64,000 nt of DNA, from NCBI GenBank assembly GCA_963674965.2, contig CAXXFL010000005.1, positions 765,150-829,149 of the forward strand, in the 5' to 3' direction. The translations under genes and the position numbers were made by a program. This stretch comes from a bacterium. GTDB lineage: Bacteria; RBG-13-61-14; DATKZS01. The notes under the pieces were generated by a model that was not told the DNA's origin, did not search any database, and saw nothing but the letters and a program-made list of their open reading frames with translations. The stretch's first letter is position 1; each line of letters starts with the position of its first letter. This document shows, piece by piece, positions 1 through 58,170 of this stretch.

Positions 1-493
1 AGCCGCGTCAGTGATCGACGTGGGCGGCCAGAGTATAACCTCGATCGCCCTGGACGAGGACGGTGAGGTGGTGAATTTCATGCGCAACGACAAATGCGCC
101 TCCGGCTCGGGCCGGTTCCTCGAGATGATGGCGGCCAAGCTGGGCGTCGGCATCGGGGAAATCGACGCCGCCGTCCGCCGGTCCTCCCGGGTGGTCGGGA
201 TCAGCAGCCAGTGCGGGGTCTTCGCCGAGAGCGAGGTCATAACCCACGTGAACAACGGCGAGGACAAAAACGACGTCATGGCCGGCGTCTGCGCGTCGGT
301 GGCCAAGATGGTGAGCGCCCAGGGAAGGCGGTTCGGCTCGTCCGGCGTCTATACCGTCACCGGCGGCGTGGCCAACCTGGACGCCGTGACCCGGATCGTG
401 CATGAAAAGCTGGGCGGCGAGTTCCAGCGCTTCCCCTTTAATCCCCAGTTCGCCGCGGCCATCGGTGCGGCCCTGTTGGGCGACGCGGACTGA
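1..493 (+). CDS. BcrA/BadF/HgdC-type ASKHA ATPase (activase of 2-hydroxyacyl-CoA dehydratase / benzoyl-CoA reductase type), C-terminal part; the 5' end lies left of the window
   Basis: Frame of ORF 11..493 is open to the window edge. Motifs IDVGGQS, NDKCASGSGRFLEMMA, SSQCGVFAESEV, TGGVA. Clear paralogue of the gene at 3165..4028. Confidence 0.8.
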   Translation, partial: AASVIDVGGQSITSIALDEDGEVVNFMRNDKCASGSGRFLEMMAAKLGVGIGEIDAAVRRSSRVVGISSQCGVFAESEVITHVNNGEDKNDVMAGVCASVAKMVSAQGRRFGSSGVYTVTGGVANLDAVTRIVHEKLGGEFQRFPFNPQFAAAIGAALLGDAD

Positions 494-494
494 G

Positions 495-1208
495 ATGGGT
501 CTTTTCGACTCTCCCTTTTCACGGGTCCGGGACTTCATCCGGGAAAAAGAGGGGTCCGGCGAGCTAGTCCGACTTGAAATGGACGGCCGTCGCTCATGGC
601 CCCGCGGCCAGGAACTGATCCTCGAGGACGAGACCGCCCTCGAATTGGGCCATCCCGAAAAAGGGTCACTTTTTTTCCTCGCCTGGACGGAGAACGCCTC
701 GGGTGAGGATGAAGTCATGCTGGTGGGACCGGACCTGCAAAAGATACCGGACCGAAGCGCTCCCTTTGCCCTGGCCGTCCTCGTGAGCGGGCAATTCGAG
801 GACGAGTACGACTGCTTCCGCGACCTGCGGGACGAGGTCTTCGATACCAGGCTGAGGGGCATGGCCTCGCGGGTCATGCCCAGCAGGCAAACCATATGGA
901 CGAGGGTCAAGCGGGACGCCCTGGAAAATGGAATGTCCCTTGCCCACCTTGGCGCGGCCATCATTGACAATCTCAGGGATTTCGAGTTCGTAAGCCGCGT
1001 CCAAACGCTGTTCGTTACCTCGGCCAAGGAGGACGTGGAGAAACTGGCGCCGGCGGCCCTCGAGTCGGACCGCATAGCCCGGGCCATGATCAAGATGACC
1101 GAGGAAATGAGCTACGACTGCGAGTCCTGCGAGTTTAGCGACGTATGTGAAGACGTGGCCGAACTGAAGCGCATACGCGCCAGGCTTGGAAAAGAGGGGC
1201 CGGCGTGA
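495..1208 (+). CDS. Stand-alone protein resembling the N-terminal domain of acetyl-CoA synthase beta subunit (CdhC/AcsB), ending in a CxxCx5C motif
   Basis: ATG at 495, one base after the upstream TGA (491-493). By-eye match to my recollection of the CdhC N-terminus: LELGHPEKGS, VMLVGPDL, PFALAVLVSG, TIWTRVKRD, VQTLFVTSAKEDVEKL, YDCESCEFSDVC. It stops where the A-cluster domains would begin. Confidence 0.5.
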   Translation: MGLFDSPFSRVRDFIREKEGSGELVRLEMDGRRSWPRGQELILEDETALELGHPEKGSLFFLAWTENASGEDEVMLVGPDLQKIPDRSAPFALAVLVSGQFEDEYDCFRDLRDEVFDTRLRGMASRVMPSRQTIWTRVKRDALENGMSLAHLGAAIIDNLRDFEFVSRVQTLFVTSAKEDVEKLAPAALESDRIARAMIKMTEEMSYDCESCEFSDVCEDVAELKRIRARLGKEGPA

Positions 1209-1960
1209 GGCGGACGGTGGTGGGCGTCTGCGGCAAGGGCGGCGTGGGCAAGACCACGGTCTCGGCCATTCTTGCCGCCGAGCTGGGACGGCGAAAGGAA
1301 TACAAGTCGCTCGTGATCGACGCGGACCACGCGGCGGGACTTACCATGGCCCTGGCTTTAAATCCGGAGAGCACCATCAACCGGGCGCGCTCCGAGACCA
1401 TCGCCGAGATCAAAGAGAAGCGGATGGACAAGAGCGAGTTGGCCATGGGTCTTGATTATCTTCTTTCCCGGGCCTTGGCCGAGCGGGACAACCTGGCGTT
1501 CCTTTCTCTGGGCCGCCCGGAGGAGGTGGGGTGTTATTGCTCGGTCAACTCACTATTGCGGGAGGCCATCGAGGTCCTGGCCGGGGGTTTCGACTACGTG
1601 CTCATTGACGCCGAGGCCGGCATCGAGCAGGTCAACAGGAAGGTCATGAAGTCGGTAGATTACCTCCTTCTGGTTTCCGATTCCTCGGCCAAGGCGGTGC
1701 GGGTGGCCGAGACCATCCGGGAGGTGGCCGCCGGGACCGCGGGCCAGGGGAGGGCCGGGCTCCTGATCAACCGGATTAAGGACGAAAGCGAAGTCGCGGA
1801 GATTGCCGGGACCACTCGCCTCGAGGTGATCGGGTGGGTCCCCGAGGACGAGACGGTCAGGCGCCACGATTTCAAAAACCTTTCCTTTTTCGACCTGCCT
1901 TCCTGTCCGGCCTCCGAGGCGGTCATAGGCGCTCTAACCGGGGCGGGAGTACTGGACTGA
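1205..1960 (+). CDS. CooC-family P-loop NTPase (MinD/ParA-like nickel/metallocentre maturation ATPase)
   Basis: GTG start overlaps the upstream stop (GTGA at 1205-1208). Deviant Walker A 'GKGGVGKTT' and a C-x-C motif 'GCYCSVN' typical of CooC. Confidence 0.8.
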   Translation: MRRTVVGVCGKGGVGKTTVSAILAAELGRRKEYKSLVIDADHAAGLTMALALNPESTINRARSETIAEIKEKRMDKSELAMGLDYLLSRALAERDNLAFLSLGRPEEVGCYCSVNSLLREAIEVLAGGFDYVLIDAEAGIEQVNRKVMKSVDYLLLVSDSSAKAVRVAETIREVAAGTAGQGRAGLLINRIKDESEVAEIAGTTRLEVIGWVPEDETVRRHDFKNLSFFDLPSCPASEAVIGALTGAGVLD

Positions 1961-1976: not shown

Positions 1977-3161
1977 TTATCCGATCCTGCCGTTTTCCGC
2001 CGGGCCGTAGAGGTTTTCGAACTCGCGTCGGCGCCCGTCTTCATCGACGGCGAAGCCCTCCAGCCGTCCGCATTTCTGGTAATACTTGAAAGGAAGGGGA
2101 GCCAGGTTCACCATCTTGCCGCCCTCGGGCGTGAAGCGCGCCTCGAGGCGTCCCGAGTTTTCGCGAAGCGTCCATGGCTTGTCCGGCGACCTCGGATCGT
2201 GGTCCCATTTGACCGCGTCCAGGAAGGAAATCTTTCCGTCTATCCAGAGGCAGTTCTCGTTCCAATACTCCTGGTCCCGAGCGTAATAGTCCACGGCGTT
2301 AAAGGCGATGGACCTTCCCTCGAGGGTCTTGCCCTCGCCCGTTCCCCAGGTCCACCTTCTCGGAATGGGCCAGAAGGCCCTGAACTCATCGAGGATCGCG
2401 AAGCGCTCATCGGCCGAGTACTCGACCTCCTCGCCTCCCACCCGGACGCGGCCATCAATGCCCATGACCGTTTTATGCGTGTAGATGTAATGGCGCGGAT
2501 ACAAGGGCATGCTGACCACCAGGGGCTGGAAGCTCTTCAGGTCCTGTTTGAGCTCGAGATCCATCTGCAGGGAGGGTTTGTTTTTCCCCGCGGGCATTTC
2601 GATATTTATCCGGTGGAGTCCATGGTCCAGGTCGTGAATGAACTCCAGGTGGAAGTTCTTTTGGGAGGAGTAGGTGCGGCCGTTCCACAGGGTCTCGGGA
2701 ACGCCCGAGTTGCTCGAGTTTCCAACCGCGTCGTACGAGAAGTTATCGCCCGAGTCCATATCCAGGGCGTAGACGCTCGAGACGGACGCGGCCTTCAGGT
2801 CCATCATAATCATACCGAAGTACCATCTGGGGTGGGCAAAGCCGAAGCCGACCCACTCCTGGAGACGGGGCCCTCCCCACCAGCGGCGCGGACCGCCCTT
2901 GAAGAGGTTAGCCTCAAGCAGGTTCACCTTCCGGCAGGGCTCGCGGAAGAGCCCGAGCCTGAGACGTCCGCCGGTCGATATCTCGGAGGGGGCGTCCTCG
3001 AGGGCGCGGGGGCCGTCCGGGTACCAGGGCGGCTTAACGTACAGGTCGTCAAAGCCCTCCCACTCGTTCGCGCCAAGGGACCGGGAAGGCGGGCAAAGGG
3101 TTGCCGCCGACAATGCTCCCCCCTCGATGACCGCCCTTCTTCTATCTATTTGCCTGGTCAA
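1977..3161 (-). CDS. Hypothetical protein, possibly DUF2804-like; Arg-rich N-terminus
   Basis: 394-aa ORF with coherent, non-repetitive composition, 4 bp downstream of the activase gene on the same strand. The family call is from memory only. Confidence 0.45.
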   Translation of the reverse strand: MTRQIDRRRAVIEGGALSAATLCPPSRSLGANEWEGFDDLYVKPPWYPDGPRALEDAPSEISTGGRLRLGLFREPCRKVNLLEANLFKGGPRRWWGGPRLQEWVGFGFAHPRWYFGMIMMDLKAASVSSVYALDMDSGDNFSYDAVGNSSNSGVPETLWNGRTYSSQKNFHLEFIHDLDHGLHRINIEMPAGKNKPSLQMDLELKQDLKSFQPLVVSMPLYPRHYIYTHKTVMGIDGRVRVGGEEVEYSADERFAILDEFRAFWPIPRRWTWGTGEGKTLEGRSIAFNAVDYYARDQEYWNENCLWIDGKISFLDAVKWDHDPRSPDKPWTLRENSGRLEARFTPEGGKMVNLAPLPFKYYQKCGRLEGFAVDEDGRRREFENLYGPAENGRIG

Positions 3162-3164: not shown

Positions 3165-4028
3165 TCATTCCTCTCTTCCATCCTCGTTATGACCGGTATT
3201 TTTATGGTTCGAGCGTCCAATCCACCGTCCGGGCGCTCGGTAGGCGTCCCTGGCGAAGAGGGCCGCTCCCAGGGCGCCGATGAGCTGGGGGTCCATGGGT
3301 AGGGGCTTGAACCTCGTTTCCAACTCCTTCTCCAGAAGCTCGACCATGGCCCGGTTCTTACTCACGCCGCCCGTCATGCAGACTTTTTCCCTTACCCCCA
3401 CCCTGCCGGTAAGGGCCTTGATCCTTTTGACCAGCGATTGATGCACTCCGGCGGCCACGTGCTTTTTCTTCTTGCCCGAGTAGATAAGCTGAGTCACCTC
3501 GACCTCGGCGAAAATGGTGCATTGCGAGCTGAGGACAAGGGGCCGTCGCGACTTCCGGGCCAGGTCGCCGAGCTCCGATACCTCGATGCCCAGGGTGCGG
3601 GCCATCATCTCGAGGAACCTGCCCGTGCCGGCGGCGCACTTGTCGTTCATGGCGAAGTCCTCGAGGGAGCCGTCGCTATCCACCCGGATGACCTTGCAGT
3701 CCTGTCCTCCCACGTCGATGATGGTGCGGACGTCAGGCGCCAGGCTATGGGCGCCTCTCCCGTGACATGATATCTCCGAGACGTTGCGGCGGGAAAAGGG
3801 AATCGAGTCCCTGCCGTAGCCCGTGGAGAAGCAAAGAGTGACGGCGTCCTCCATAAGGTTGGCCCGGGCCAGGGCCTTGTGGAAGACCTCGCGGGCCGAC
3901 TGCTCGGCCCGGGGACGGACCCGGATGATCTCTCCCGCCAGCGAGGCTCCGCTCTCGTCGATAAGCGCGCACTCGGCGGTAAGGGACCCCACGTCGATCC
4001 CGGCGAATATGGGCGATGACTGGCTCAA
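3165..4028 (-). CDS. BcrA/BadF/HgdC-type ASKHA ATPase (activase)
   Basis: Full-length 287 aa. Motifs GIDVGSLT, IIDVGGQDCKVI, NDKCAAGTGRFLEMMA, SSQCTIFAEVEV, MTGGVSKN. Confidence 0.85.
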   Translation of the reverse strand: MSQSSPIFAGIDVGSLTAECALIDESGASLAGEIIRVRPRAEQSAREVFHKALARANLMEDAVTLCFSTGYGRDSIPFSRRNVSEISCHGRGAHSLAPDVRTIIDVGGQDCKVIRVDSDGSLEDFAMNDKCAAGTGRFLEMMARTLGIEVSELGDLARKSRRPLVLSSQCTIFAEVEVTQLIYSGKKKKHVAAGVHQSLVKRIKALTGRVGVREKVCMTGGVSKNRAMVELLEKELETRFKPLPMDPQLIGALGAALFARDAYRAPGRWIGRSNHKNTGHNEDGREE

Positions 4029-9991: not shown

Positions 9992-11599
9992 CTATTTTTC
10001 TCCGCCATGGTCCTCGATCAGCTTTGCGGCCCGCTCATGTCCTTTTTTCTCGGCCAGCTTGAGAGGGGTTTTCCTGTCGCTGTTACGGATGTTTACTTCG
10101 CAGCCTCGGTCGAGCAGAAGCGCGACGATTTCCGTATGGCCCATATTTGCCGCCCAGTGCAAGGGGGTATTGTCGTGAGCCGTGCGGGCGTTAATGTCCG
10201 CTCCATTGTCCAGAAGCAGGGCCGCAATGTCTTTATACCCTCTGCGCGCCGCCCAGTGAAGAGGCGTGTATTTGCCGTCGTTCGAGGCGTTTACGTCGGC
10301 GCCCTTTTCGATCAGCATCTTTGCGATCCGGTAGCTTCCGCCTATGGCGGCCATGTGAAGGGGAGTGGTCCCCGTGTCGTTTTTAGACTCGATATCGGCT
10401 CCCTGCCCTATAAGGAATTGGGCGACTTCAACCTTGTCATGAATGGCGGCCAGGTGAAGGGGCGTATAGTTCGGCGCCACCACGATCTTGCTGTCCTCGT
10501 TGGGGAGGTCGGGAATGTGTTCCAGCTTGAATTTAACGTTGGTCAACCCCACGTAGCCGGACGTCAATTCCTTTACGGCCCGGATGTTTCCAGCCAGGAC
10601 CTCATTATAGAAAAGCTCGATTTCCCTTTCGCCGGCGGGCGAGCGTCCCATGCCCGCTGGAGGAAGTCCGGAATTGGCCGCCGAAGCCAAGGGAATTTCC
10701 GCGGGCTTCCCGGTCGGCTCGGTAAAAAAGACAAACTCTCCGTCGCCGGCGATATTGAACAGCTTGGGGGTCTGCCGGCCTCCCGAGTCGCGAGTGATCC
10801 TGGGCGCCATGTAAGAGTAAAGCTCGGAAGCGGGTATAATGCCGTCTCCATTCAGGTCGGCGTTTCCTCTTTTAAGTCCACTTAAAAGGGTATAGGTAAA
10901 CATGGAATGGCCGCCTCCAAACTGGGGTCCCTCGATGACCGTTTCATTGGCCTGGCCGGCGGTTATTATCTGCACGGCGCGCTGAGTTGTCAGCTTGGTA
11001 AGGTACAAAGTGGGGTCGGCGTAAGGGACCGCTCTTGTTTCCACCCCCGCGATCCCCGAGTAACAGGCGTCGACTATATAAAAGATGTGCTTCGATTTCA
11101 TCATCTTAGCCGTCTCCTGAATGGTGGACATGGAAAGACAGGTGCCGTAAAGATTGTCCGCCTTTCCTTCCACTGGTATGAGATAGCCCATTTTTTCTCC
11201 GCTGGGAAGAGGCATATCCTGACCATGTCCGGCAAAGAAAATAAGCACCCTGTCGTTGGGACCTACCTTTTGAGGCAAAGTATTTCCCAAAGCCGTCTTG
11301 ATATTAGCCATAGTCGCCTTCTCGTCGTATAGAGTCTCGATGTTTTCAGCGGGAAATCCGCCATCGGCCGCAAGGTACTGCTTCATGGCCTTGGCGTCGG
11401 CCACGGCGTATTTTAACTCGGGAACGTTTTCATACTTGTCGATCGCGATCAGCAGGGCCCATGACTGGGCATAGACGGACTTGGGCGGCGCGCCCGGCCC
11501 ATCTTTGGGGCCATCTAATATATCGCGTTCCTTTGATACCGAGATCGCGGCAAGGAAAGATAATAATAATATCGCCGGGACTATTCTTTTCATGATCAT
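9992..11599 (-). CDS. Exported caspase-family (peptidase C14) protein fused to about 5 C-terminal ankyrin repeats
   Basis: Signal peptide MIMKRIVPAILLLSFLAAISV. Caspase His/Cys dyad contexts 'IFFAGHGQD' and 'YIVDACYSG'. Repeated 'TPLH.AA..G....LL..GADxN' units. Confidence 0.85.
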   Translation of the reverse strand: MIMKRIVPAILLLSFLAAISVSKERDILDGPKDGPGAPPKSVYAQSWALLIAIDKYENVPELKYAVADAKAMKQYLAADGGFPAENIETLYDEKATMANIKTALGNTLPQKVGPNDRVLIFFAGHGQDMPLPSGEKMGYLIPVEGKADNLYGTCLSMSTIQETAKMMKSKHIFYIVDACYSGIAGVETRAVPYADPTLYLTKLTTQRAVQIITAGQANETVIEGPQFGGGHSMFTYTLLSGLKRGNADLNGDGIIPASELYSYMAPRITRDSGGRQTPKLFNIAGDGEFVFFTEPTGKPAEIPLASAANSGLPPAGMGRSPAGEREIELFYNEVLAGNIRAVKELTSGYVGLTNVKFKLEHIPDLPNEDSKIVVAPNYTPLHLAAIHDKVEVAQFLIGQGADIESKNDTGTTPLHMAAIGGSYRIAKMLIEKGADVNASNDGKYTPLHWAARRGYKDIAALLLDNGADINARTAHDNTPLHWAANMGHTEIVALLLDRGCEVNIRNSDRKTPLKLAEKKGHERAAKLIEDHGGEK

Positions 11600-11642
11600 A
11601 CCCCCGTTTGCGTTCGCCAGAAAAAAGTTATCATAAAAACCA

Positions 11643-13616
11643 TTAATCGCATTTAATTTCGAAAACCTCGACTGGGTCCTGAAATCCTTTCAACTCCTTA
11701 AAACCCGCGGCCTCGCACTCGATTAAGTCCCTGATCATGGCCCAGGTCCGCTTGGAGATCATCACGTTGCCGGGCGTACAATTGGACTCCAGGCGCTGGG
11801 CCATGTTGACGCTCGAGCCCAGGGCCGTGTACTCGCGGTGTAAATTGGACCCGAAAAAGCCCACCCCGGCAAAGCCGGTTTTGATTCCTATGCGGATGAC
11901 TATTTCCGGCCATCCCGACTCTATCCATTTCCTCGAGAGTTCCTTGGTCACCCGCTGCATCTCGATAGCGGCTTTTGCCGCCTCAAGGGCATGGTCGTCA
12001 GATGGGACGGGCGCTCCCCAAAAGGCCATGATGCCGTCGCCGATAAACTTGTCTAAAGTACCGCTATATTTAAATATTATTTCAGTCATGGCCTCGAAAT
12101 ACTCGGATAATAGCGCGTTGATTACCTCCGGGTCCTCCCGGTCCGAGATGGCAGTAAAGCCCCGGATGTCGGAAAATAATACGGATATCTCGCGCCTTTC
12201 GCCTTTAACCTGGAGGCTTTTCGGATCAGCAAGAAGCCGCTCGAGCACGGAAGGCGATATAACGTTTCTAAAATGCTCCTTTAAAAATTTCGCCTCCCTG
12301 TCAATCCTGGATGAATTGTAAGTAATCATCGCCCCAAGACCGATAATGAAAGATACCAGGGGAAGAGTGACGGGGATGAAAGAACCGATCCAAGCTGGAG
12401 CCGCTATTGAAAAGCCAAGATACAAAGCAACCACGAACGCGCCCGCCGGCGCGGAGAGCCAAGGGCTTTTACCAAGTCCGATAACGATGGATAAAGCGGT
12501 CAAGCCTGCCAGGCAGAAAATGAATCCCATCACCCCGGCGTCGGATTTCATTTTCCGTCCCATGATCGTATTAGCCAAATTGGCGTGTATCCCGACGCCG
12601 GGAAAAGCCGCCTGGAATGGCTGGCTCCTCATGTCGGTTCCGCCCGTATAGGCCGCCCCCACAAAGCACAGGGAGCCTTTTATACGCCGGGCCAACTCGG
12701 CGGCCACGTCATCCGGCGGGTCGGGATCGATCAGCCATTGGGCGGAGAAGAGCCCCGTGCGCTCCTCAGTATTCCAGGCGTCCCAAGGTCCGGTCCAGTT
12801 TATTATCGACCGCCCTTGCCCGTCCACGGGTATTATCAGATCATCGGCCGGGCCATTCTTTTTGGCTGGAATAATCAGGTCTGATCCCCGCATCACCATC
12901 CCGTCAAAGTCCCACTCGCCCAGTCGCTCGACGGCGGCAAGCCCTAATACTGGAAGCAGCCCGTCCCGCGTCGAAACAAAAAGAGGAACGCGGCGCAGTA
13001 CTCCGTCCGAGTCGGGCGACGCGGGGTTCGTGGCCATGGCCGCGGCGGACTTTAAGTACCACTCAGGCGGGAAAAGCGCTCTGGAAAAGTCTGGAAAATC
13101 GGGCGTTTCCTTGTCGTGACCGACCCGATAGAGGGAAGGCATTAGCAGTTCCCGCTCCTCAGGAGAAATTTCCGGCTCGGCTCCGGCCCCTGAATAAGAA
13201 AGCTCGAGGGGGATAGTCCCGATCACCTTGTCGGCGGCCAACATGGCGGACGCGAGGTTCTCGTCGTTCACCGGGTCTTTACTGGGCGAAGCGATGATAA
13301 AGTCGTAGATTATTGCTTTAGCGCCGTAAGCGTCAATGCGCTCGATTATGGCGGCCTGCCTGGACCGGGACCAGGGCCACGGGCCAAAGCGCTCGAGGCT
13401 GGGGTCGTCAACCGCGACGATGACTATCCTCGGGTCGGTTTTGACCGGTCCAAGCAACCTCGTTCGGAGGTCGGCGGTTTTGAGTTCGATCTCGCCGATG
13501 GTCCTTCCCAAAACCAGGTATAAGGCGAGCATGATAACCGGACCGGCCAACCCCCAGAGGGCGGTCCGGATATTCCGGGCGCTCGAGGATGAAAATCTCT
13601 TTTTACCTGTGCTCAA
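11643..13616 (-). CDS. CHASE2 sensor-domain adenylate/guanylate cyclase (class III)
   Basis: N-terminal TM, then 'IVIVAVDDPSLERFGPWPWSRS' (CHASE2), a cluster of TM helices, and a cyclase core 'ISVLFSDIRGFTAIS ... KFIGDGIMAFWGAP'. Confidence 0.9.
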   Translation of the reverse strand: MSTGKKRFSSSSARNIRTALWGLAGPVIMLALYLVLGRTIGEIELKTADLRTRLLGPVKTDPRIVIVAVDDPSLERFGPWPWSRSRQAAIIERIDAYGAKAIIYDFIIASPSKDPVNDENLASAMLAADKVIGTIPLELSYSGAGAEPEISPEERELLMPSLYRVGHDKETPDFPDFSRALFPPEWYLKSAAAMATNPASPDSDGVLRRVPLFVSTRDGLLPVLGLAAVERLGEWDFDGMVMRGSDLIIPAKKNGPADDLIIPVDGQGRSIINWTGPWDAWNTEERTGLFSAQWLIDPDPPDDVAAELARRIKGSLCFVGAAYTGGTDMRSQPFQAAFPGVGIHANLANTIMGRKMKSDAGVMGFIFCLAGLTALSIVIGLGKSPWLSAPAGAFVVALYLGFSIAAPAWIGSFIPVTLPLVSFIIGLGAMITYNSSRIDREAKFLKEHFRNVISPSVLERLLADPKSLQVKGERREISVLFSDIRGFTAISDREDPEVINALLSEYFEAMTEIIFKYSGTLDKFIGDGIMAFWGAPVPSDDHALEAAKAAIEMQRVTKELSRKWIESGWPEIVIRIGIKTGFAGVGFFGSNLHREYTALGSSVNMAQRLESNCTPGNVMISKRTWAMIRDLIECEAAGFKELKGFQDPVEVFEIKCD

Positions 13617-14805
13617 ACTCGACGTGCCTCGCGACGATGTTGTCCCCTTTGATGATAGTCGGATTGATCCGCCCCTTTCCAGATGAACCGGAGAGGGAAA
13701 GGGGCGGTCCCTGGCTTATCCCCCCAATGCTCCTTTCCGTGTAGCCCGCCGTGCCCGTGACGTCAATAGGAGGCTTGGCCCGGCCGGGAGCGCGGGTATC
13801 GAATATCTTGTTCAGTTCGGTCGAAATGGAATTCGACAGCGCGGATTTGTCGGCGTCCTCTTTGGCCAGGCCGCCGATCAAGCGGGAAAGGTCTTTGATC
13901 GGCTCCTTTGCGGCCAGGAAATAAAGGGATTCCCTGCCAAGGTGGTCGTCGAGAGTATACCATCCCGTTCCGGGCGGTAAGGCGTATTCCATGCCCGCCT
14001 GGATATAGTTGGAAGCCGCCTCTCCCTGGCCGGGGAAAAGGACCCCGGCCGAACCGGTCGAGCCGATCTGGATGACGTAGACGTAGCAGGGGCGGTTGGC
14101 TGAGAACCGGATTTTCATGCGGTCGCCCGAGTGGAGGACCGCCCCCGGCGTGAGCTCGATTATGCGGGAGATATTTCCATCGGCGGCGTCGGTTACTTCC
14201 GCGGCGAAGCTGACTCTTATGACGAGCTCGCCGCCGCCCGGGATTGGCAAGGACGCCTCGTTAACCGGCTCGGGCCGGGGAGAAGAGACCATCAGGCTCT
14301 GCACTTCGGATTTGTACACGAGCGCCGAGGATTGTCCGGCTTTTTGGCCGCTTGATACGTCCATGATCGACGCCTCGATCCTTACCGACTCGCCCGCCTC
14401 GCGGATCGTTCCCGTTACGATCCAGTCGGCGCCCAGGGCTTGCCCGATCTTTTCTATCGCGTCCGGTTCCGATATCTCGCCGGAAATAAGATTTTTTTCG
14501 ATGATGACTTGGTTGATCTTCCGCCTCTCGATCATGCGCCGTCCGCCTTCTCGAGTAAGCCCGACTGACAGTGACTCGGCCAGATAATAGCAAAGAGGCA
14601 TGGTCCGGCCATCAGGACCGATAAAGTCCAGCACCGCCACCAGGTCGCCTTTCTTTATCGCTTTGCCAAGGTCCCTCTCCAATACGGATAGCGCCGGACT
14701 AAGCCCCATGGCCGCCTCTCGCCCATTCTTTTCAGAGCGCGCCGAAAGGCAAATCATGCCGATAAAGACGGCCGCTAAAAGAGCTATGTTAATGGAATGC
14801 TTCAT
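13603..14805 (-). CDS. Exported protein with an N-terminal FlgO/CsgG-like domain and a DUF4384-like domain
   Basis: Signal peptide. 'VAVLDFIG...ADWIVTGTI' N-domain. Central 'GDRMKIRFSANRPCYVYVIQIGSTGSAGVLFP' resembles DUF4384. Its stop overlaps the cyclase start by 14 bp. Confidence 0.65.
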   Translation of the reverse strand: MKHSINIALLAAVFIGMICLSARSEKNGREAAMGLSPALSVLERDLGKAIKKGDLVAVLDFIGPDGRTMPLCYYLAESLSVGLTREGGRRMIERRKINQVIIEKNLISGEISEPDAIEKIGQALGADWIVTGTIREAGESVRIEASIMDVSSGQKAGQSSALVYKSEVQSLMVSSPRPEPVNEASLPIPGGGELVIRVSFAAEVTDAADGNISRIIELTPGAVLHSGDRMKIRFSANRPCYVYVIQIGSTGSAGVLFPGQGEAASNYIQAGMEYALPPGTGWYTLDDHLGRESLYFLAAKEPIKDLSRLIGGLAKEDADKSALSNSISTELNKIFDTRAPGRAKPPIDVTGTAGYTERSIGGISQGPPLSLSGSSGKGRINPTIIKGDNIVARHVEFEHR

Positions 14806-38932: not shown

Positions 38933-39039
38933 ACGGGTATGGCTTACTTCCAGGAATATGATAATATTGATTATCATAATATCCTACGGGTATGGCTTAC
39001 TTCCAGGAATATGATAATATTGATTATCATAATATCCTA
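38933..39039. repeat. Perfect tandem duplication, 2 x 53 bp (+1)
   Basis: The unit 'acgggtatggcttacttccaggaatatgataatattgattatcataatatcct' occurs at 38933-38985 and again at 38986-39038 with no mismatch. Confidence 0.95.
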
Positions 39040-39396
39040 TTGTATAATAAAAATAATAATAATCGAGCTTATACCAACCATATGTCATTTCGAACTTGAT
39101 ATCATCATAAGATGCCGCGAATAAAAGCGTATCGCCAGGAGGATAGTTATATGATATTTTGCCGTCAGGTCCACCGGAGATTATGTAAGTTGTTTTATTT
39201 CCTTCAAACTTAATCCCATCAATTTCAAATGATACTTCCTTCCCTACAAGAACAAGATGCTTGTGGCCCCAAACGTCTTTTCCGATAATGTCATGTATTT
39301 CTTCCTCCGTCATATCAAAATCAATGACAGAAGATGCTTCAATTAAATTGTCAACCTCCTTTTTAAGTTTCTCGCTACCCTCTGTGCCAACGTAGA
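38984..39396 (-). pseudogene. 3' part of a small AT-rich gene interrupted by the IS3 element and truncated by the 53-bp duplication
   Basis: The frame of track ORF 38984..39313 stays open upstream to the IS boundary (YVGTEGSEKLKKEVDNLIEASSVIDFDMTEEE...). The stop TAG is formed exactly at the duplication junction. Confidence 0.5.
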
Positions 39397-39446
39397 TGAG
39401 ACACTTCCCCTATGTTAAATTACTGTAGGGCGGGGGAGGTATTAGG

Positions 39447-39986
39447 ATGTATAGAGAGATGGATGAAGACAGGAAGAAGGCAGGGATTGTTGGGGAGACG
39501 GAGGGAGCCCGTAGGGCGACCGGAGTCTCCCCAACCGGGACGGCCGAGCCGGAGGACACTCCGGCCAAGCGGCCCGAGCGGGGAGGGGCGCCGATCATTC
39601 TTCCCGACCCGGAGGTCCCGGAAAAGCCCGCCCGGCGGCGCTTCACCGCGGCTTACAAGCTCGCAATCCTCGGGAAGGCCGACGCCTGCTCGGGGCATGG
39701 CGAGGTCGGCGCCCTGCTGCGCCGGGAGGGCCTTTATTCGTCGCACCTGACGGCCTGGCGCAAGCAGCGGGACGAGGGGGCCTTGAAAGCGCTTTCGCCC
39801 GTAAAGCGGGGCCGCAAGCCCAAGGCCAAAAACCCGCTGGCCGATGAAGTGGCCCGCCTCGAGCGCGAGAACCGGAAGCTCCAAAAGCGGCTCGAACAGG
39901 CCGAGATGATAATCGACTTCCAAAAAAAAGTTGCCGATCTGCTGGGGATACCCCTGGCCAAGCCGCCCGGCGAAGAGAGCGAATGA
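39447..39986 (+). CDS. IS3-family transposase OrfA (HTH + leucine zipper)
   Basis: 'RRRFTAAYKLAILGKADAC...GALLRREGLYSSHLTAWRKQ' and the coiled 'LARLERENRKLQKRLEQAEMIIDFQKK'. Confidence 0.85.
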   Translation: MYREMDEDRKKAGIVGETEGARRATGVSPTGTAEPEDTPAKRPERGGAPIILPDPEVPEKPARRRFTAAYKLAILGKADACSGHGEVGALLRREGLYSSHLTAWRKQRDEGALKALSPVKRGRKPKAKNPLADEVARLERENRKLQKRLEQAEMIIDFQKKVADLLGIPLAKPPGEESE

Positions 39987-40999
39987 TGGAATCGGCAAGC
40001 ACGGCCGCTCCCCGGGTCGGCGTCAAGGCCGCCTGCGAGGCCCTGGGCCTGTCGCGGGCAACGTTTGACCGCCGCGCTAAAATTCCCTTCGGGCCTCCGC
40101 CGCCGAGGCGCGCGGCCAAGCCGGCAAGGTCGTTGAGCGAGGACGAGCGGCGCCGGGTGCTGGACGGACTCCACTCCGAGCGCTTTGCCGACAAGGCCCC
40201 CCGCGAGGTCTGGGCAACGCTCCTGGACGAGGGGACATGGCTGTGCTCGGTCCGCACCATGTACCGCGTCCTCGACTCGGAAAAGGAAGTCAGGGAGCGG
40301 CGCAACCAGCTTCGGCATCCCCGATACAAAAAACCCGAGTTGCTGGCCGAGGCCCCCAACCAGGTCTGGTCCTGGGACGTCACCAAGCTCAAGGGACCGG
40401 CCAAATGGACCTGCTACCAGCTCTACGTGATCATGGATATCTTCAGCCGCTGCGTGGTGGGCTGGATGATCGCCCGCCGCGAGAGCGCCGAGCTGGCCCG
40501 CCGCCTGATCGGGGACAGCATCCGAAAACAGGAGATCGAGCCGGGACAACTCACAATCCACGCCGACCGGGGGAGTTCGATGAAATCAAAGCCGGTGGCC
40601 TTCTTGATGGCCGACCTGGGCGTGACCAAGAGCCACTCGCGGCCCCACGTGTCCGACGACAACCCCTACTCGGAAAGCCAGTTCAAGACCATGAAGTACC
40701 GGCCCGAGTTCCCGAGCCGGTTCGGCTCCATCGAGGACGCCAGGGCCTTTTGCGTGAAGTTTTTCGATTGGTACAACCGCGAGCATCGGCACACCGGGAT
40801 CGGCCTGATGACGCCCGAGATGGTCCATTACGGAATGGCGAGCGAGATCGTGGCCGCCCGGCAAAAAACGCTCGACCACGCCTATGAAAAAAACCCGGAG
40901 CGCTTCGTGAAAAGACCGCCGACGGCGCCGGAGTTGCCCGGCAAAGCGTGGATCAACCCACCGGAGAAACCGGAGGAAACAAACAGTTTGCCACACTAA
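39983..40999 (+). CDS. IS3-family transposase OrfB (rve/DDE integrase core)
   Basis: 'WSWDVTKL', 'IHADRGSSMKS', 'SRPHVSDDNPYSESQFKTMKY', 'YNREHRHTGIG'. ATGA overlap with orfA. Confidence 0.9.
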   Translation: MMESASTAAPRVGVKAACEALGLSRATFDRRAKIPFGPPPPRRAAKPARSLSEDERRRVLDGLHSERFADKAPREVWATLLDEGTWLCSVRTMYRVLDSEKEVRERRNQLRHPRYKKPELLAEAPNQVWSWDVTKLKGPAKWTCYQLYVIMDIFSRCVVGWMIARRESAELARRLIGDSIRKQEIEPGQLTIHADRGSSMKSKPVAFLMADLGVTKSHSRPHVSDDNPYSESQFKTMKYRPEFPSRFGSIEDARAFCVKFFDWYNREHRHTGIGLMTPEMVHYGMASEIVAARQKTLDHAYEKNPERFVKRPPTAPELPGKAWINPPEKPEETNSLPH

Positions 41000-41020
41000 A
41001 TTCAGGAAAGGCGTGTCTCA

Positions 41021-41143
41021 TTTTGCTTGACACATTCCGCTATTTGAAAATAAGGTATCAGAGTTTTTCGTCTTATATGGATGAAATGAAATAACGAGAA
41101 ACGGCAATAATATAAATGTAACTGTAAACATTTTTCGAGACAT
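41021..41143 (-). pseudogene. 5' fragment (41 codons, signal-peptide-like) of the gene interrupted by the IS3 element
   Basis: GAAGGAG RBS 7 nt before the ATG at 41143. It encodes MSRKMFTVTFILLPFLVISFHPYKT...MCQAK and then runs into the TGA supplied by the IS end. Confidence 0.4.
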
Positions 41144-41175
41144 CTCATTACTCCTTCTCGAGGTATGGCAAATTT

Positions 41176-41330
41176 GGGGACGGCATCAATATCTCGCCTC
41201 TTTTCCTTTATCTGGGGGCAGTGTACTTAATTGCTGAAAATCATCTGGGTTCTCTGATAGTGAATATTGATGAAATATTCATAAACACTTGTCCGCCCTG
41301 CAATAAAGGCGAGATATGGATGCTGTCGCC
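41176..41330. repeat. Pair of ~23-bp inverted repeats about 110 bp apart (MITE-like or regulatory)
   Basis: 'ggggacggcatcaatatctcgcc' (41176-41198) against the reverse complement of 'ggcgagatatggatgctgtcgcc' (41308-41330): about 20/23 matches by eye. A local hairpin gagatatgg/ccatatctc lies at 41311-41337. Confidence 0.5.
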
Positions 41331-41418
41331 ATATCTCATAAGATTTCTTTATCTTTTCATCGGATTATTCCTGGCCTCCTTTTAAAATCAGAAACTCTAA
41401 GATTTTATCATGCAACTA

Positions 41419-42627
41419 TTACTCGGTCCCACCATGATTTTTGATGATTTGCGCAATTTCTTTATGGCCTTTTTCAAGCGCGGCCATATAAGGGGTTTTC
41501 CCATTACTGCACTTTGCATTTACGTCAGCCCCATTTTCGATTAGTAGTTCGACCATGCCTCTTTTGCCTTCCAAGGCCGCAATGTACAAAGGAGTCTCGC
41601 CTGATATAGTCCCCTTCGCATTGATTGTCGCGCCGTTTTGGATCAGGACCTTGGCGACTCTGACGTGATCAAATGCGCTGGCTATATGGAGAGGCGTCCA
41701 ATTATTTTCCTCCACAATGTCAACATTTACTCTTTTGGACAATAATAGCTCAGCTACTTCCACCGCATCCTTTCTTGCGGCCAAGTGTAAGGGACTTAAG
41801 TTTGCATTTTCTTCTGCGAGGTTAGGGTCCGCGCCCTTGGCAATCAGGTCCAAGGCCAAATCTGTCTGTCCCATTATAATTGACTTGTGCAGGGCCGTTT
41901 GTCCATCATTCGATTTGGCATCCAGGTCTATGCCTTTAGAGATAAGGATACGCGCAACATCCACTTTCTCCTGGGCGACCGCGAGTAATAGGGGAGTATA
42001 TCCGGCGTCGGTTCGAGCCCCCAAGTTTGCGCCTTTTTCGACCAGCAATTCTACGATCTTTTTTCGTCCCTGGAAGCTTGCTATGTGAAGGGCGGTCATG
42101 TCGTGTTCGGATTTAACATCAAGCTTGGCTCCTCTTTCCACTAGCAATCTCGCAACATCGTAATTGCCCATATTGGCGGCATGGTGCAGAGCCGTCATGC
42201 TTTGATTGTCCTGTACGTCGATCTCAGCTCCAGCGTTAAGTAACTGTTCGCAAGCCTCTCTCTGTCCTTTGTGTGCCGCCATCAACAGAGGCGTAAATCC
42301 AACCTTATCCGTGGCTTCAATATCCGCTCCATTAGCCAAGAGCAAGGTTATCATCTCATTATTTCCCAAGTGAGCGGCAAAGTGAAGAGGCGTATGATTT
42401 TTATATCTCTCTCTGGAGTTGACCTTTTTAGGCTTCTTTTCGAGTGTCTTCCTGACCTCGGATATATCACCATTTGCCACTGCCTGATGAATCTTTCCGC
42501 CCCATACAGTCTCAGGACATAAAAGAAAGAAAACCACCATAACTAGAAGTGGTTTTATAACCCCTTTTTGGCAACCGGAATTATGCGGCATCCCGCCTTC
42601 AATATAATTTTTACCTGATCGATCCAT
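41419..42627 (-). CDS. Exported ankyrin-repeat protein (about 10-11 repeats), AT-rich gene
   Basis: Hydrophobic N-terminus 'IKPLLVMVVFFLLCPETVWG', then tandem 'TPLH.AA..G....LL..GA' units. An alternative start at 42591 is possible. Confidence 0.85.
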   Translation of the reverse strand: MDRSGKNYIEGGMPHNSGCQKGVIKPLLVMVVFFLLCPETVWGGKIHQAVANGDISEVRKTLEKKPKKVNSRERYKNHTPLHFAAHLGNNEMITLLLANGADIEATDKVGFTPLLMAAHKGQREACEQLLNAGAEIDVQDNQSMTALHHAANMGNYDVARLLVERGAKLDVKSEHDMTALHIASFQGRKKIVELLVEKGANLGARTDAGYTPLLLAVAQEKVDVARILISKGIDLDAKSNDGQTALHKSIIMGQTDLALDLIAKGADPNLAEENANLSPLHLAARKDAVEVAELLLSKRVNVDIVEENNWTPLHIASAFDHVRVAKVLIQNGATINAKGTISGETPLYIAALEGKRGMVELLIENGADVNAKCSNGKTPYMAALEKGHKEIAQIIKNHGGTE

Positions 42628-43025: not shown

Positions 43026-44885
43026 TTATTTCATGGCTGTGGTATTGGTTACCTTCGGCTCGTGGCAGAAGGCGCAGTTGCCGATGCAGTCGGCCTCGGC
43101 GTTGCATCCCATGGCGTCTCCGTTCATGCGGTGACAGGTCAGGCACAGGCCGTGCATGGCGTGCTTGTAACCGGGCGCCCACCTGGTGACGCCCTTGCCA
43201 TAGAGCTTCTCGGCCGTCATGGGATACTGGCCGTCCTTGTCGTGGCACTCTACGCATCCCTTGGCCGTTGCCTCGGACTTTTCCTTGTACGACTCGTGGC
43301 ACTTGTCGCAGGAGTCGTTATTTCCCATCCGCTCCTTGTGTTTGTCGTGGTCGAAGATATCCGTGTCTACCGCCATGTCGGCGTGGCAGAGGTGGCAGGA
43401 GGTCGCATGGTCGTCGGGTCTTTCGAGGTGATGGCATTTCACGCAGGAGTCCTCGCCGCCCATCAGCTCCTGGTGGACGTCGTGGGGAAAGTTCACGTAC
43501 TCCGCGGAAAGGTTGCCGTCGATCTTCAGCACGGCCCTGGTCTCGTCTACTCCCTTCGCCTTCTCGACCGGCTGGGGAGTGGGCTCGAACTTGCTCGTGC
43601 CCTTGCCCAGGAAGGCCAGATAGGCCAAGGGTATGGTGATGACCACGATGAGCGACACCTTGAGGCCGTCCTTGAACTTGATCATGGAGAAGGCTTCCCG
43701 CAGCGTGAACTGGGGGGCCATGTCGTGATGGACTCCCTCGGCCTCGGGCACGTGGCAGGCCTCGGGGGCCTCGAGGATATAGAACCTCTCGAGGAGGAAA
43801 AAGAACAACAGGGCCGCCGCCGCGGGAACGCCAAGACAAACGACCATCTCGGCCAGGGAGGGAACGTAAACCCTCTCGGCGAAGCGGAAGTATCCCACGA
43901 AGCCCACGTCGAGACGGTGCATGACCAGCCCGATAAAGGCGGGCACGCTGAAGGCGTACAGGCCGGGCACGGTCTTTCTCCATTTGCCGCTTAGTCCGAT
44001 GATGACCGGTATTATGGCCTGGAGTGTAATTTCGATGAGGAATAGTTTTCCTTCCCAGCCGGCGTCCGAGCCGAACACCCAGTTCCACTTGCCCTCGGCC
44101 GTAAGCACGATGAGGCGGATGGCCAGGAAGATGGCCAGCAGGACCGCGGAAATCCTCGCCACGCCGGAGAGGACCTCGAGGTCGGGCTTTCTTCTATACA
44201 GCCACGAGACTATGAGCATGATGAGCACGATGGTGGCCATGCCCGCTCCCATGGCGGAGATGAAGAACTCGATCGGTATCCAGAAGGTGTGCCACAGGGG
44301 GTGGAGCCTGGTATAGGACAGCATGAAAAGGGAGCCCAGCGAGCTGTGGTGCATGGTCGAGAGGGTCACGCCCAGGGCGATGATGGGCAGGGCCATCTCG
44401 TGCAGGAAGTGGGTCAGCCGGGGAAAGGGAAAGCGCTCGAGGATAACGGGCACCATCTCGTAGGCGGTGATCATCCAGTAAACGGACACGCACCAGAAGA
44501 CCTCGAAGAGGAAGGAGTGTGGGTTCCAGATGAGGAACGGGTGCCATCCGCGCCATGGGAGACCGATGTCGAAAACGAGAGCCGTAAGTGACGCCCCGTA
44601 TCCGAGGAAGCCGATGAGCACGGCTATTCTTCCGATGGACCTGTATTTATCGGCGTACCAGATGTTAATGATAAAAGCTACCACGAATCCGGAGGTGGCG
44701 AGAGCGGCGCCGGCGACCATGTTGAAAATCTTCCACATGCCCCATGGCAGTCCGTCGGACATGTAGGACGCGGCGCCGAGTCCGAAGGCGAACCTTCCGA
44801 CCACGGCCACCAGGGCGGCGAAGGACATGACCCAGAGTATTTCTTTTATCCGCTTGAGGGCGGTGGAGTCGGACTTAATCATCAC
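43026..44885 (-). CDS. NrfD/PsrC/HmcC-type quinone-interacting membrane subunit fused to a C-terminal hexahaem cytochrome c domain
   Basis: About 10 TM segments with NrfD-like composition, one further TM, then six CxxCH motifs (CVKCH, CHLCH, CDKCH, CVECH, CLTCH, CAFCH). Confidence 0.85.
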   Translation of the reverse strand: MMIKSDSTALKRIKEILWVMSFAALVAVVGRFAFGLGAASYMSDGLPWGMWKIFNMVAGAALATSGFVVAFIINIWYADKYRSIGRIAVLIGFLGYGASLTALVFDIGLPWRGWHPFLIWNPHSFLFEVFWCVSVYWMITAYEMVPVILERFPFPRLTHFLHEMALPIIALGVTLSTMHHSSLGSLFMLSYTRLHPLWHTFWIPIEFFISAMGAGMATIVLIMLIVSWLYRRKPDLEVLSGVARISAVLLAIFLAIRLIVLTAEGKWNWVFGSDAGWEGKLFLIEITLQAIIPVIIGLSGKWRKTVPGLYAFSVPAFIGLVMHRLDVGFVGYFRFAERVYVPSLAEMVVCLGVPAAAALLFFFLLERFYILEAPEACHVPEAEGVHHDMAPQFTLREAFSMIKFKDGLKVSLIVVITIPLAYLAFLGKGTSKFEPTPQPVEKAKGVDETRAVLKIDGNLSAEYVNFPHDVHQELMGGEDSCVKCHHLERPDDHATSCHLCHADMAVDTDIFDHDKHKERMGNNDSCDKCHESYKEKSEATAKGCVECHDKDGQYPMTAEKLYGKGVTRWAPGYKHAMHGLCLTCHRMNGDAMGCNAEADCIGNCAFCHEPKVTNTTAMK

Positions 44886-45808
44886 TCGCCCTCCTTCCCC
44901 GAGTCCGGGCCCGGCCCGTCGTCATGGCATACCTCGTCGATAAATGCGGTCTGGGCGCCCTCGGGTCCGGCGGCCCCATGTTCTCCGTCGCCTCCGCTCA
45001 TAAGGTGGGAGCGTCTTTTTAAAAACCACATGCTCATGATGCCGCTAAAGAAGATAATAAACTGGAAAGGCGTCCACCAAACCCACGGCTCCACCTGGTG
45101 CGGTATGGACTGGGTGGACAGTTTCCCGGCGGCCATTTTTTTAAGCTTGGCCGGATCGGGTATTTTAAGGGCGTCGCCGAGGGGCACGTCCGAGATGTAC
45201 ATTACGGATGTCCCGCCGAACTCGCTCTCTCCCCAGATATGGTCGATGTACTTGCCGGGGTCCTTCTTGATCCTGTCCCTGGCCTCCTTGATGAGGTCGT
45301 CGCGGTCTCCGAAGATGGTGGCGCCCGTCGGGCAGGCCGCCACGCAGGAGGGGCGGTTGTCCCGCTCGCTGGCCCGGCACTCCTCGTTCATCTTGCACTT
45401 GACCACGTAGGGCACGGGCTTGTCCCACTCGTAGCGGGGGACCATGAAGGGACACGCCAGCATGCAGTAGCGGCACCCGATGCACTTGTCGGCGTCGTAA
45501 ACGACCGGCCCGTCCTCGCGCTTGTCGAACGCTCCGACCAGGCAGGCGGCCTTGCAGGCGGGATCGATGCAATGCATGCACTGCCGGCGCACGTTCCTTA
45601 TTTCCCCGGCGCTTTTGCCGGCTATCTTGACGATCGAGGTGAGCCTCCTGCCGCTCAGTCCGTCCTTCGCCTTGTAATGGGCGGGGACGTCCCTGGGCAG
45701 CTTGTTAGCCTGAACGCACGCCTCGACGCATCTCTCACATCCAATGCACTTGGTCACGTCGGTGAGGATGCCCTTCATTTTTCCGTTGCCGGAATGGCCC
45801 GAGCTCAT
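44882..45808 (-). CDS. 4x[4Fe-4S] ferredoxin-type subunit (HmcB/NrfC/HybA-like) with a C-terminal TM anchor
   Basis: 'CIGCERCVEAC', 'CMHCIDPACKAAC', 'CIGCRYCMLACP', 'CVAACPTGA' cluster motifs. TM 'WWTPFQFIIFFSGIMSMWFL'. Confidence 0.85.
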   Translation of the reverse strand: MSSGHSGNGKMKGILTDVTKCIGCERCVEACVQANKLPRDVPAHYKAKDGLSGRRLTSIVKIAGKSAGEIRNVRRQCMHCIDPACKAACLVGAFDKREDGPVVYDADKCIGCRYCMLACPFMVPRYEWDKPVPYVVKCKMNEECRASERDNRPSCVAACPTGATIFGDRDDLIKEARDRIKKDPGKYIDHIWGESEFGGTSVMYISDVPLGDALKIPDPAKLKKMAAGKLSTQSIPHQVEPWVWWTPFQFIIFFSGIMSMWFLKRRSHLMSGGDGEHGAAGPEGAQTAFIDEVCHDDGPGPDSGKEGE

Positions 45809-45855
45809 TAAAAGCCCTCCTTATATCCACCGCTGAGGATCGTCTCGGCGGCCTT

Positions 45856-47373: not shown

Positions 47374-47475
47374 CCCTTTTCACGCGGGACGCCATATCCC
47401 GCGTCCGATTTGCGCCGGCGGCCTTTGCCGCTATCTTATTTTTTACGGCGGTCTTTTCCGCCCTGGTGTTTCAAA

Positions 47476-50172: not shown

Positions 50173-50223
50173 CCACCTCTTTTAATGACAAGTAAAACCA
50201 TTTAGTACGGCCTCATCCAAAAA

Positions 50224-50835: not shown

Positions 50836-50847
50836 GTTCTTTTCCCC

Positions 50848-51456: not shown

Positions 51457-51474
51457 ATTCCCAATCTCCCGCTC

Positions 51475-53074: not shown

Positions 53075-53104
53075 TATCTACCCCCGCAAATTTATACCAA
53101 GCGC

Positions 53105-57969: not shown

Positions 57970-58042
57970 GGGCGATTAGCTCAGTGGATAGAGCACTTGC
58001 CTCCGGAGCAAGGGGTCGCGGGTTCGACTCCCGCATCGCCCT
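57970..58042 (+). tRNA. tRNA-Arg (anticodon CCG)
   Basis: Hand-folded cloverleaf: acceptor GGGCGAT/ATCGCCC, D arm GCTC-AGTGGATA-GAGC, anticodon arm CTTGC-CTCCGGA-GCAAG, variable loop GGGTC, T arm GCGGG-TTCGACT-CCCGC. CCA is not encoded. Confidence 0.9.
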
Positions 58043-58170
58043 TATATATCAATGACTTACAAGCATCCCTTAAAGTTGACTATCAAGGACTGAATGGGGA
58101 CAAAAAGGGGAACAACCCCCCGGAAACCATAAACTTGTCAAGCGGTGCCTAGTGGGCTGCCCCGGCGACG

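Follow-up and report, generated by a model that had tools for sequence, protein, structure and literature searches.

A stand-alone homologue of the acetyl-CoA synthase A2 domain paired with a CooC-type ATPase and conserved beside benzoyl-CoA-reductase-like genes

Acetyl-CoA synthase (ACS; AcsB in bacteria, CdhC in archaea) is counted among the most ancient enzymes, with domains that normally occur only within the machinery that it forms with carbon monoxide dehydrogenase (CODH). ATPases of the CooC type are known maturases. To our knowledge, dehydratases of the HgdAB type have neither CdhC-like nor CooC-like partners. The DNA studied here is a 64,000-nucleotide stretch of a bacterial contig (CAXXFL010000005.1, positions 765,150 to 829,149 of the forward strand; assembly GCA_963674965.2), referred to below as the window. 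Its left end carries the 3' part of a BcrAD/HgdC-type ATPase gene, followed by a gene for a CdhC-like protein and a gene for a CooC-like ATPase (Table 1). A preliminary description of this DNA had proposed a metallocluster maturation or reductive-activation module, which fits the sequence comparisons reported here. We tentatively read the CdhC-like and CooC-like genes as a fixed two-gene module alongside a Bzd-type reductase-like enzyme that would act on an acyl-CoA, a possibility that we favor while placing it somewhat short of probable.

As judged from profile and fold comparisons, the CdhC-like protein is a homologue of the CoA-binding middle domain (A2) of bacterial ACS. It matched PF03598 (CdhC) with 40.4 bits (cut-off 24, E 3.5e-10), and four NCBIfam CdhC/AcsB models matched its residues 41-213 with 42-52 bits against full-length cut-offs of 356-809. 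A profile of the CdhC-like family matched solved ACS/CdhC chains at E 2e-15 to 1e-13, including 2e-15 for the ACS of Clostridium autoethanogenum (6ytt) and 7e-15 for Methanosarcina CdhC; the only other sequence matches in PDB were three nidovirus endoribonuclease chains at E ~0.2, which is not usable. An AlphaFold model built on 27 relatives reached a pLDDT of 92.9. When this model was compared with PDB by Foldseek, 23 significant matches were returned, all of them ACS chains (best E 2.6e-10; the next match had E 0.35), with query-normalized TM scores to ACS chains of 0.54-0.59. The matched region corresponds to residues 332-510 of the 729-residue Moorella ACS and to residues 17-192 of archaeal CdhC. 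Both the A1 domain (CODH docking) and the A3 domain, where most of the A-cluster resides, are absent, and without A3 the CdhC-like protein has no Cys-Gly-Cys nickel site and no fourth cubane Cys.

These comparisons bear on several points of the preliminary description. Every one of its motif blocks (ELGxP, VGPDL, WxRVxxDA, FVT..EDVEK and the start of the A-cluster CxxC) was aligned by HMMER to solved ACS/CdhC chains. Its placement of the homology in the first ~230 residues of CdhC/AcsB stands for archaeal CdhC and had to be changed for bacterial AcsB, in which the counterpart is the middle A2 domain (~330-510). The nickel-binding part of the A-cluster is missing, as had been stated, and the protein ends 19 residues past its third Cys. 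The profile and structure comparisons that the description had proposed gave a PF03598 score above the cut-off and a predicted fold that matches ACS chains only. Because the matches to ACS/CdhC were significant in both sequence and fold, a chance resemblance of motifs is ruled out and was rejected.

Conservation was counted in 84 non-redundant CdhC-like sequences. Residues E50, G52, S58, G78, G122, W135, A197, C209, C212 and C218 were invariant in all 84; R137 was present in 82 (Lys in the remaining two), D208 in 80, E213 in 81 and D216 in 80. The pair C209-x2-C212 aligns with 'YSCVLCQ' at 504-510 of Moorella ACS, in which we take Cys506 and Cys509 to be the first two cubane ligands of the A-cluster. 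C218 lies five residues after the CxxC and presumably corresponds to the third cubane ligand of ACS after a three-residue deletion, an equivalence that stands outside the alignment. The CdhC-like protein holds only these three Cys of the complete ligand set of the ACS A-cluster. In the ACS of C. autoethanogenum, acetyl-CoA is bound mainly by A2, with Trp405 stacked on the adenine and the CoA diphosphate facing a basic patch, and roles in acetyl transfer have been proposed for Arg383 and His386 (bioRxiv 10.1101/2024.08.05.606187). The profile alignment to 6ytt agreed with this residue numbering and placed W405 on W135 and R407 on R137. The alignments indicate that the predicted nucleotide-binding surface of A2 is retained in the CdhC-like family and that the catalytic residues of ACS are lost.

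A word-indexed search yielded 56 clusters of 232-270 residues; CdhC was the only domain annotated in them, and some had none. When 1.84 billion representatives were searched exhaustively with a profile, 789 proteins scored E<=1e-3, of which 551 reached E<=1e-10 and 212 reached E<=1e-30; the best 150 of the 789 were all 114-308 residues long. Since the family is large and uniform in length, its members are taken to be functional stand-alone proteins. In a species scan with one genome per species, the CdhC-like gene was found in 93 species genomes, and the 80 listed were all metagenome-assembled genomes (MAGs). The hosts among those listed were mostly Actinomycetota and Desulfobacterota (Desulfobacterales, Smithella/Syntrophaceae), with further labels of Spirochaetota/Leptospirales, Dehalococcoidales, Dethiobacteria, Clostridiaceae, Bacteriovoracaceae and one Methanobacteriota. 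No cultured host appeared in the wider profile search, which returned environmental sequences only. An exact look-up of the window's protein returned no record, and scans with the single protein found no relative in genome contigs and six relatives in metagenome contigs. The family was not described in the literature searched, which covered the gene combination and CdhC-like, AcsB-like and CooC-like proteins. A shorter, divergent subfamily (L071, L072, L073, L089 and also L054; related loci are cited by such numbers) matches from about residue 35 only and retains W135, R137 and the three Cys; it adjoins two HGD-D family genes directly, with no CooC-like or ATPase gene nearby.

The best PDB relative of the CooC-like ATPase was CooC1 of Carboxydothermus (E 7.9e-13), ahead of the MinD proteins, and its relatives carry the JGI label 'CO dehydrogenase maturation factor'. 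The C-x-C ('GCYC') on which the CooC-type assignment had first been based is in register with the CYC metal motif of CooC1. Both Cys of this motif, like the Walker A motif, were conserved at >=95% in 74 CooC-like orthologues. A MinD-type cell-division ATPase was considered and rejected on the CxC motif and the closer match to CooC1. Neither a Ni-dependent CODH nor a full ACS was found near the CooC-like gene, in the window or in nine Pfam-annotated related loci. By sequence, the protein is a putative metallochaperone related to CooC1 and AcsF, the ATPases that insert nickel into CODH and ACS.

Gene context was taken from these nine loci on Pfam-annotated contigs and from a survey of 84 related loci. 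The canonical order starts with two acyl-CoA dehydrogenases, three proteins without a family match and two or three HGD-D subunits, and ends with two paralogous BcrAD ATPases, the CdhC-like gene, the CooC-like gene and sometimes a metallophosphoesterase. The CooC-like gene lay directly 3' of the CdhC-like gene in 74 of the 82 loci with room for it, a BcrAD ATPase gene lay directly upstream of the CdhC-like gene in 58 of 79, and HGD-D genes were present in 68 of 84. L001 and L012, the closest relatives for which upstream sequence exists, each have two HGD-D genes there. No other association is as strong or as constant as that of the CdhC-like protein with the CooC-like ATPase, and in relatives the three-gene block forms the 3' end of a conserved operon that encodes a Bzd-type reductase-like enzyme and acyl-CoA dehydrogenases. 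In the window, the TGA at 491-493 is followed by a 1-nt spacer and the ATG at 495, and the GTG at 1205 overlaps the TGA at 1206-1208 in a 4-nt GTGA. A spacer of 1-2 nt between the second ATPase gene and the CdhC-like gene was seen in the window and in L001, L006, L008 and L009, and the 4-nt overlap of the CdhC-like and CooC-like genes recurs in relatives.

The packing of the three genes had thus been given correctly to the nucleotide in the preliminary description, and its question of whether the block is conserved is answered by the 74 of 82 loci with the CooC-like gene downstream and the 58 of 79 with the ATPase gene upstream. Family scans of the window proteins found no gene for CODH, ACS, an HGD-D subunit or a corrinoid Fe-S protein within the 64 kb, which extends to the whole window the earlier remark that no CODH/ACS catalytic genes were visible. 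The nine Pfam-annotated related loci held no CODH/ACS or corrinoid Fe-S protein genes either, and CODH/ACS genes showed in none of the 84 related loci. The block might have been part of a standard cdh/acs operon, as the description itself had warned, and this was rejected on the absence of CODH/ACS genes from the window and the nine loci.

The open reading frame at 2-493 matched PF01869 BcrAD_BadFG (E 7.5e-33) and TIGR00241 (135.9 bits, cut-off 125.4). Its earlier assignment as an HgdC/BcrA-type activase holds for the family and not for a single activase, since it is one of two paralogous ATPases, the other lying at 3165-4028. The cut ATPase was 60% identical to the second ATPase ('B2') of L002 and is its orthologue; the other was 54.5% identical to the first ATPase ('B1') of L002 and is inverted and displaced in the window. 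Both carry Cys-x39-Cys (NDKC...SSQC in the fragment), and these two Cys are presumably inter-subunit [4Fe-4S] ligands, as in HgdC. The ATPases of related operons resemble BzdQ.

The HGD-D subunits of related operons resemble those of Bzd-type reductases. In the N-like subunits (n=72), six Cys were 90-100% conserved at positions 36/74/101/261/291/325, and in the O-like subunits (n=73) three Cys were 93-97% conserved. The [8Fe-9S] cluster of BzdN is ligated by Cys36/73/100/263/293/327, and BzdO has a three-Cys aqua-[4Fe-4S] site (PMC11971306). Because of the six-Cys N-like and three-Cys O-like signatures, the partner enzyme is taken to be Bzd-type and class I benzoyl-CoA-reductase-like. The four-subunit Bzd architecture, with six-Cys and three-Cys subunits and two ATPase paralogues, was found in relatives only. 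Scored against equivalog models, the first HGD-D subunit gave 194.5 bits for BzdN (cut-off 453.8) and 195.8 for the double-cubane model (cut-off 350), and the best scores for BzdO and BzdQ were 36.6 (cut-off 448.6) and 193.3 (cut-off 380.2). Similarity to BzdN/O/P/Q stays below the equivalog level that would imply benzoyl-CoA as the substrate.

Table 1. Genes and motifs at the left end of the window
Feature	Positions	Strand	Basis or remark
BcrAD/HgdC-type ASKHA ATPase, 3' part	1..493	+	163 codons, frame of base 2, cut by window edge; PF01869, TIGR00241
CdhC-like protein, 237 aa, stand-alone homologue of ACS A2 / CdhC N-terminal domain	495..1208	+	PF03598, PDB, fold
Codons W135-T136-R137	897..905	+	counterpart of ACS adenine-stacking Trp W405 and of R407 (C. 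autoethanogenum)
Motif D208-C209-x2-C212-E213-x2-D216-x-C218	1116..1148	+	first two Cys align with first two A-cluster cubane ligands of ACS
CooC-type (MinD/ParA-class) P-loop ATPase, 251 aa	1205..1960	+	CooC1 3kje; Pfam CbiA and AAA_31
Deviant Walker A G10-KGGVGKT-17	1232..1255	+	sequence reading; >=95% conserved, 74 orthologues
C110-Y-C112, CooC-type CxC metal motif	1532..1540	+	aligned on CYC of CooC1
DUF2804 gene	1977..3161	-	PF10974, E 3.2e-47
Full-length BcrAD/HgdC-type ATPase, orthologue of first ATPase 'B1'	3165..4028	-	PF01869 E 1.1e-61; TIGR00241 246.1 bits

The simplest reading of the pair, by analogy with ACS/AcsF or CODH/CooC, is that of a client and its chaperone. We cautiously suggest that the CdhC-like protein is a putative CoA-binding, metal-centre-bearing partner of an ATP-driven reductase, served by its own CooC-type chaperone, and we consider this a reasonable candidate to which slightly less than an even chance is given. 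With ATP and its CxC site, a dimer of the CooC-like ATPase would load the Cys triad with a metal centre or repair one there. A [4Fe-4S] cluster with a single non-Cys ligand is the simplest candidate for this centre, and one containing nickel is less likely; a metal centre is suggested by the conserved CxC of the CooC-like ATPase and by the invariant triad with its flanking acidic residues. The loaded protein would then bind the nucleotide end of an acyl-CoA through the Trp135/Arg137 patch, as suggested by the conserved CoA-site residues and by the acyl-CoA metabolism encoded in the neighborhood. It would finally serve as an auxiliary redox or substrate-handling partner that exchanges electrons with the two adjacent BcrAD ATPases, a step suggested by the translational coupling of the CdhC-like gene to the ATPase genes.

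Several observations weigh against this proposal. The window, which starts inside an ATPase gene, contains no HGD-D gene within its 64 kb, and the link with a reductase in this genome is presumed. About a dozen loci have the CdhC-like/CooC-like pair and no HGD-D gene within 10 kb. Where this is so in several Actinomycetota and one Clostridiaceae MAG, with or without one ATPase, the neighbor of the pair is a gene for an acyl-CoA ligase, enoyl-CoA hydratase, CoA-transferase or acyl-CoA dehydrogenase, a setting that counts in favor of the proposal. Conversely, members of the short subfamily (L071-L073, L089) stand beside HGD-D genes without any CooC-like gene. Because the pair occurs without HGD-D in some loci, and HGD-D without a CooC-like gene in others, the partnerships are not obligatory. 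In the BzdNO structure paper (PMC11971306), accessory genes of this kind go unmentioned, so the pair is no general requirement of the enzyme class. Binding of metal and of CoA by the CdhC-like protein is itself predicted from sequence, the Cys are limited to three, and the match of the third to an ACS cubane ligand is likewise presumptive. The family does not retain the counterparts of R383/R384 and H386 of C. autoethanogenum ACS (Tyr/Phe at position 116, varying residues at position 114), and ACS-like chemistry is unlikely because the Arg and His proposed for acetyl transfer are thereby missing.

The same evidence was weighed for other explanations. The pair may consist of assembly factors that remain outside the working enzyme, with the CdhC-like protein as a transient scaffold or carrier and the CooC-like ATPase as the motor, building or inserting the [8Fe-9S] double cubane or the three-Cys [4Fe-4S] cluster of the HGD-D subunits. 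The position of the pair at the 3' end of the operon, a frequent place of maturation genes, would suit this explanation, as would the best match of the ATPase to CooC1, a member of a class of known maturases, the six-Cys double-cubane signature of the partner enzyme, and a site of three Cys and acidic residues fit for a labile, transferable cluster. The strict conservation of the CoA-site Trp and Arg, however, has no obvious role in a cluster scaffold, the pair also occurs without an HGD-D gene within 10 kb, and no such factors were described in the paper on the Bzd-type enzyme (PMC11971306); we consider the explanation somewhat unlikely. It is unlikely, to a greater degree, that the CdhC-like protein is a dedicated electron carrier, with a low-potential [4Fe-4S] cluster that replaces a ferredoxin in feeding the BcrAD module, the CooC-like ATPase only maturing the CdhC-like protein or having another role. 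A ferredoxin gene is absent from the annotated operons, the CdhC-like gene follows the second ATPase gene by 1-2 nt in the five loci named above, and an ATPase and the pair stand alone in several Actinomycetota loci. A protein of 237 residues with a conserved putative CoA-binding surface would nevertheless be an odd ferredoxin, and simple ferredoxins do not need a CooC-type ATPase.

An acyl-CoA sensor or regulatory subunit was also considered, in which the A2-like domain would gate hydrolysis by the ATPase module according to substrate availability and the triad would hold a structural metal, e.g., Zn. The conserved CoA-site residues and neighboring genes that consistently belong to acyl-CoA metabolism agree with such a role, whereas the tightly coupled CooC-type ATPase would be left without one, and the invariant Cys triad with its acidic flanks resembles a redox or labile metal site; a sensor is thus very improbable. 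The CdhC-like protein stops about at the point at which the ACS C-terminal domain would start, as might be expected if it were a cdh/acs operon's decayed remnant, a pseudogene cut short or a mere chance resemblance. This is effectively refuted by hundreds of members of equal length, by residues invariant across several phyla, by the lack of CODH/ACS genes in the loci examined and by the significant sequence and fold matches; a pseudogene fragment was rejected on the shared length and the invariant residues.

A bolder reading, which we regard as improbable, would make the CdhC-like protein a minimal ACS-derived metalloenzyme subunit; a comparably novel alternative would make the pair the first dedicated maturation system for double-cubane [8Fe-9S] clusters. 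As a minimal subunit, the protein may carry a cluster beside the bound acyl-CoA thioester, either [4Fe-4S] and site-differentiated or bridged by Ni and loaded by the CooC-like ATPase, and low-potential electrons from the BcrAD ATPases may drive new thioester chemistry, e.g., radical or decarbonylation-type steps.

Further features were noted in the related operons. The three co-conserved proteins, with lengths of ~240, ~200 and ~500-600 aa, match nothing in Pfam or NCBIfam and are always located between the acyl-CoA dehydrogenases and the HGD-D genes (L002, L008 and ~30 others). Directly after the CooC-like gene there are often two more HGD-D genes with one more BcrAD ATPase gene (loci including L038, L041, L052, L065, L067, L068, L077, L082 and L083); this second set is of the dehydratase-plus-activator type, and the pair thus lies between two enzyme systems of one superfamily. 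L006, L020 and L059 share an AIM24-family gene near the (ATPase)-CdhC-like-CooC-like block: in Actinomycetota it is immediately upstream, and in a Clostridiaceae MAG it is within 4 kb. In Actinomycetota, the block is also near the obg-proB-proA-nadD-rsfS housekeeping cluster and an AMP-binding acyl-CoA ligase.

In the window, the DUF2804 gene separates the CooC-like gene from the displaced gene of the first ATPase. No DUF2804 homologue was found in 89 related loci scanned; the arrangement is therefore a rearrangement specific to this lineage, and the DUF2804 gene is probably outside the module. Public assemblies of the two runs that contain this sequence extend past the start of the window by ~696 nt. 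At 3563-3699, where contigs break, the assembly word depth of both runs rises from ~16 to 120-150. The part of the BcrAD ATPase encoded by this segment is its most conserved one (DVGGQD...NDKCAAGTGRFLE), which many paralogues in the community share.

Elsewhere in the window, the reverse strand carries an Rnf-type set consisting of an RnfC-like gene (53105-54475), RnfD (52088-53074), an FMN-binding RnfG-like gene (51475-52095) and two Rnf-Nqr membrane subunits (50224-51456). These are followed on the same strand by a 739-aa fusion of Fe-S and pyridine-nucleotide-disulfide oxidoreductase (47953-50172), a multihaem c3/c7 cytochrome (45856-47373), a Fer4_11 protein (44882-45808) and an NrfD-cytochrome c3 fusion (43026-44885), and the whole of 43026-54475 looks like one large membrane redox supercluster, which points to a Desulfobacterota-like host. 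Three adjacent reverse-strand genes at 9992-14805, encoding a caspase (Peptidase_C14) with ankyrin repeats, a CHASE2-adenylate/guanylate cyclase and a DUF4384/FlgO protein, form a possible signalling or conflict module. At 38984-42627, an IS3-type element (HTH_Tnp_1 39447-39986, rve integrase 39983-40999) adjoins a 402-aa all-ankyrin protein with a third-position GC of 0.49 against ~0.8 in its neighbors; the low value beside the element suggests a recent acquisition. A tRNA gene (57970-58042), an open reading frame of low third-position GC without a family match (58171-59070) and a DDE transposase (59309-60184) mark 57970-60184 as a possible integration site.

The CoA-binding domain of ACS, with a partial cluster motif and a CooC-type ATPase as its presumed chaperone, has here been recruited as a protein of its own to another ancient oxygen-sensitive system, the family of ATP-driven benzoyl-CoA reductases and 2-hydroxyacyl-CoA dehydratases. 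Uncultured anaerobes carry the operon widely, Actinomycetota, Desulfobacterota and Spirochaetota among them, and it may hide a whole pathway of acyl-CoA reduction in anoxic sediments and peat. It also offers a handle on the role of CooC-type ATPases outside CODH/ACS and on the supply and servicing of site-differentiated or double-cubane Fe-S clusters.

Compared with ACS (AcsB/CdhC), the CdhC-like protein shares the A2 fold and sequence, the adenine-stacking Trp, the neighboring Arg and the first cubane CxxC, and its gene is likewise paired with a gene for a CooC/AcsF-type ATPase; it differs in having neither A1 (CODH docking and tunnel) nor A3 nor the acetyl-transfer His and Arg, and its gene does not adjoin CODH or corrinoid-protein genes in the loci examined. 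The CooC-like ATPase has the deviant Walker A of CooC1/AcsF and a CxC aligned with the metal site of CooC1, but no nickel enzyme is encoded nearby, and its presumed client is a truncated ACS-like protein. As in BzdNOPQ and the double-cubane system, related loci encode a six-Cys N-like subunit, a three-Cys O-like subunit and two BzdQ-resembling ATPases. Unlike BzdNOPQ, these operons score far below the equivalog cut-offs, often have a third HGD-D paralogue, have no ferredoxin gene, and add two acyl-CoA dehydrogenases, three unassigned proteins and the CdhC-like/CooC-like pair. With 2-hydroxyacyl-CoA dehydratase and HgdC they share the combination of a two-Cys ASKHA ATPase with HGD-D family partners, whereas HgdC is a single homodimeric activator and two ATPase paralogues are present here, as in the reductases. 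Each of the proteins belongs to a known superfamily; new with respect to the literature searched are the stand-alone A2 domain with a Cys triad, its pairing with a CooC-type ATPase outside CODH/ACS, and their place in a benzoyl-CoA-reductase-like operon.

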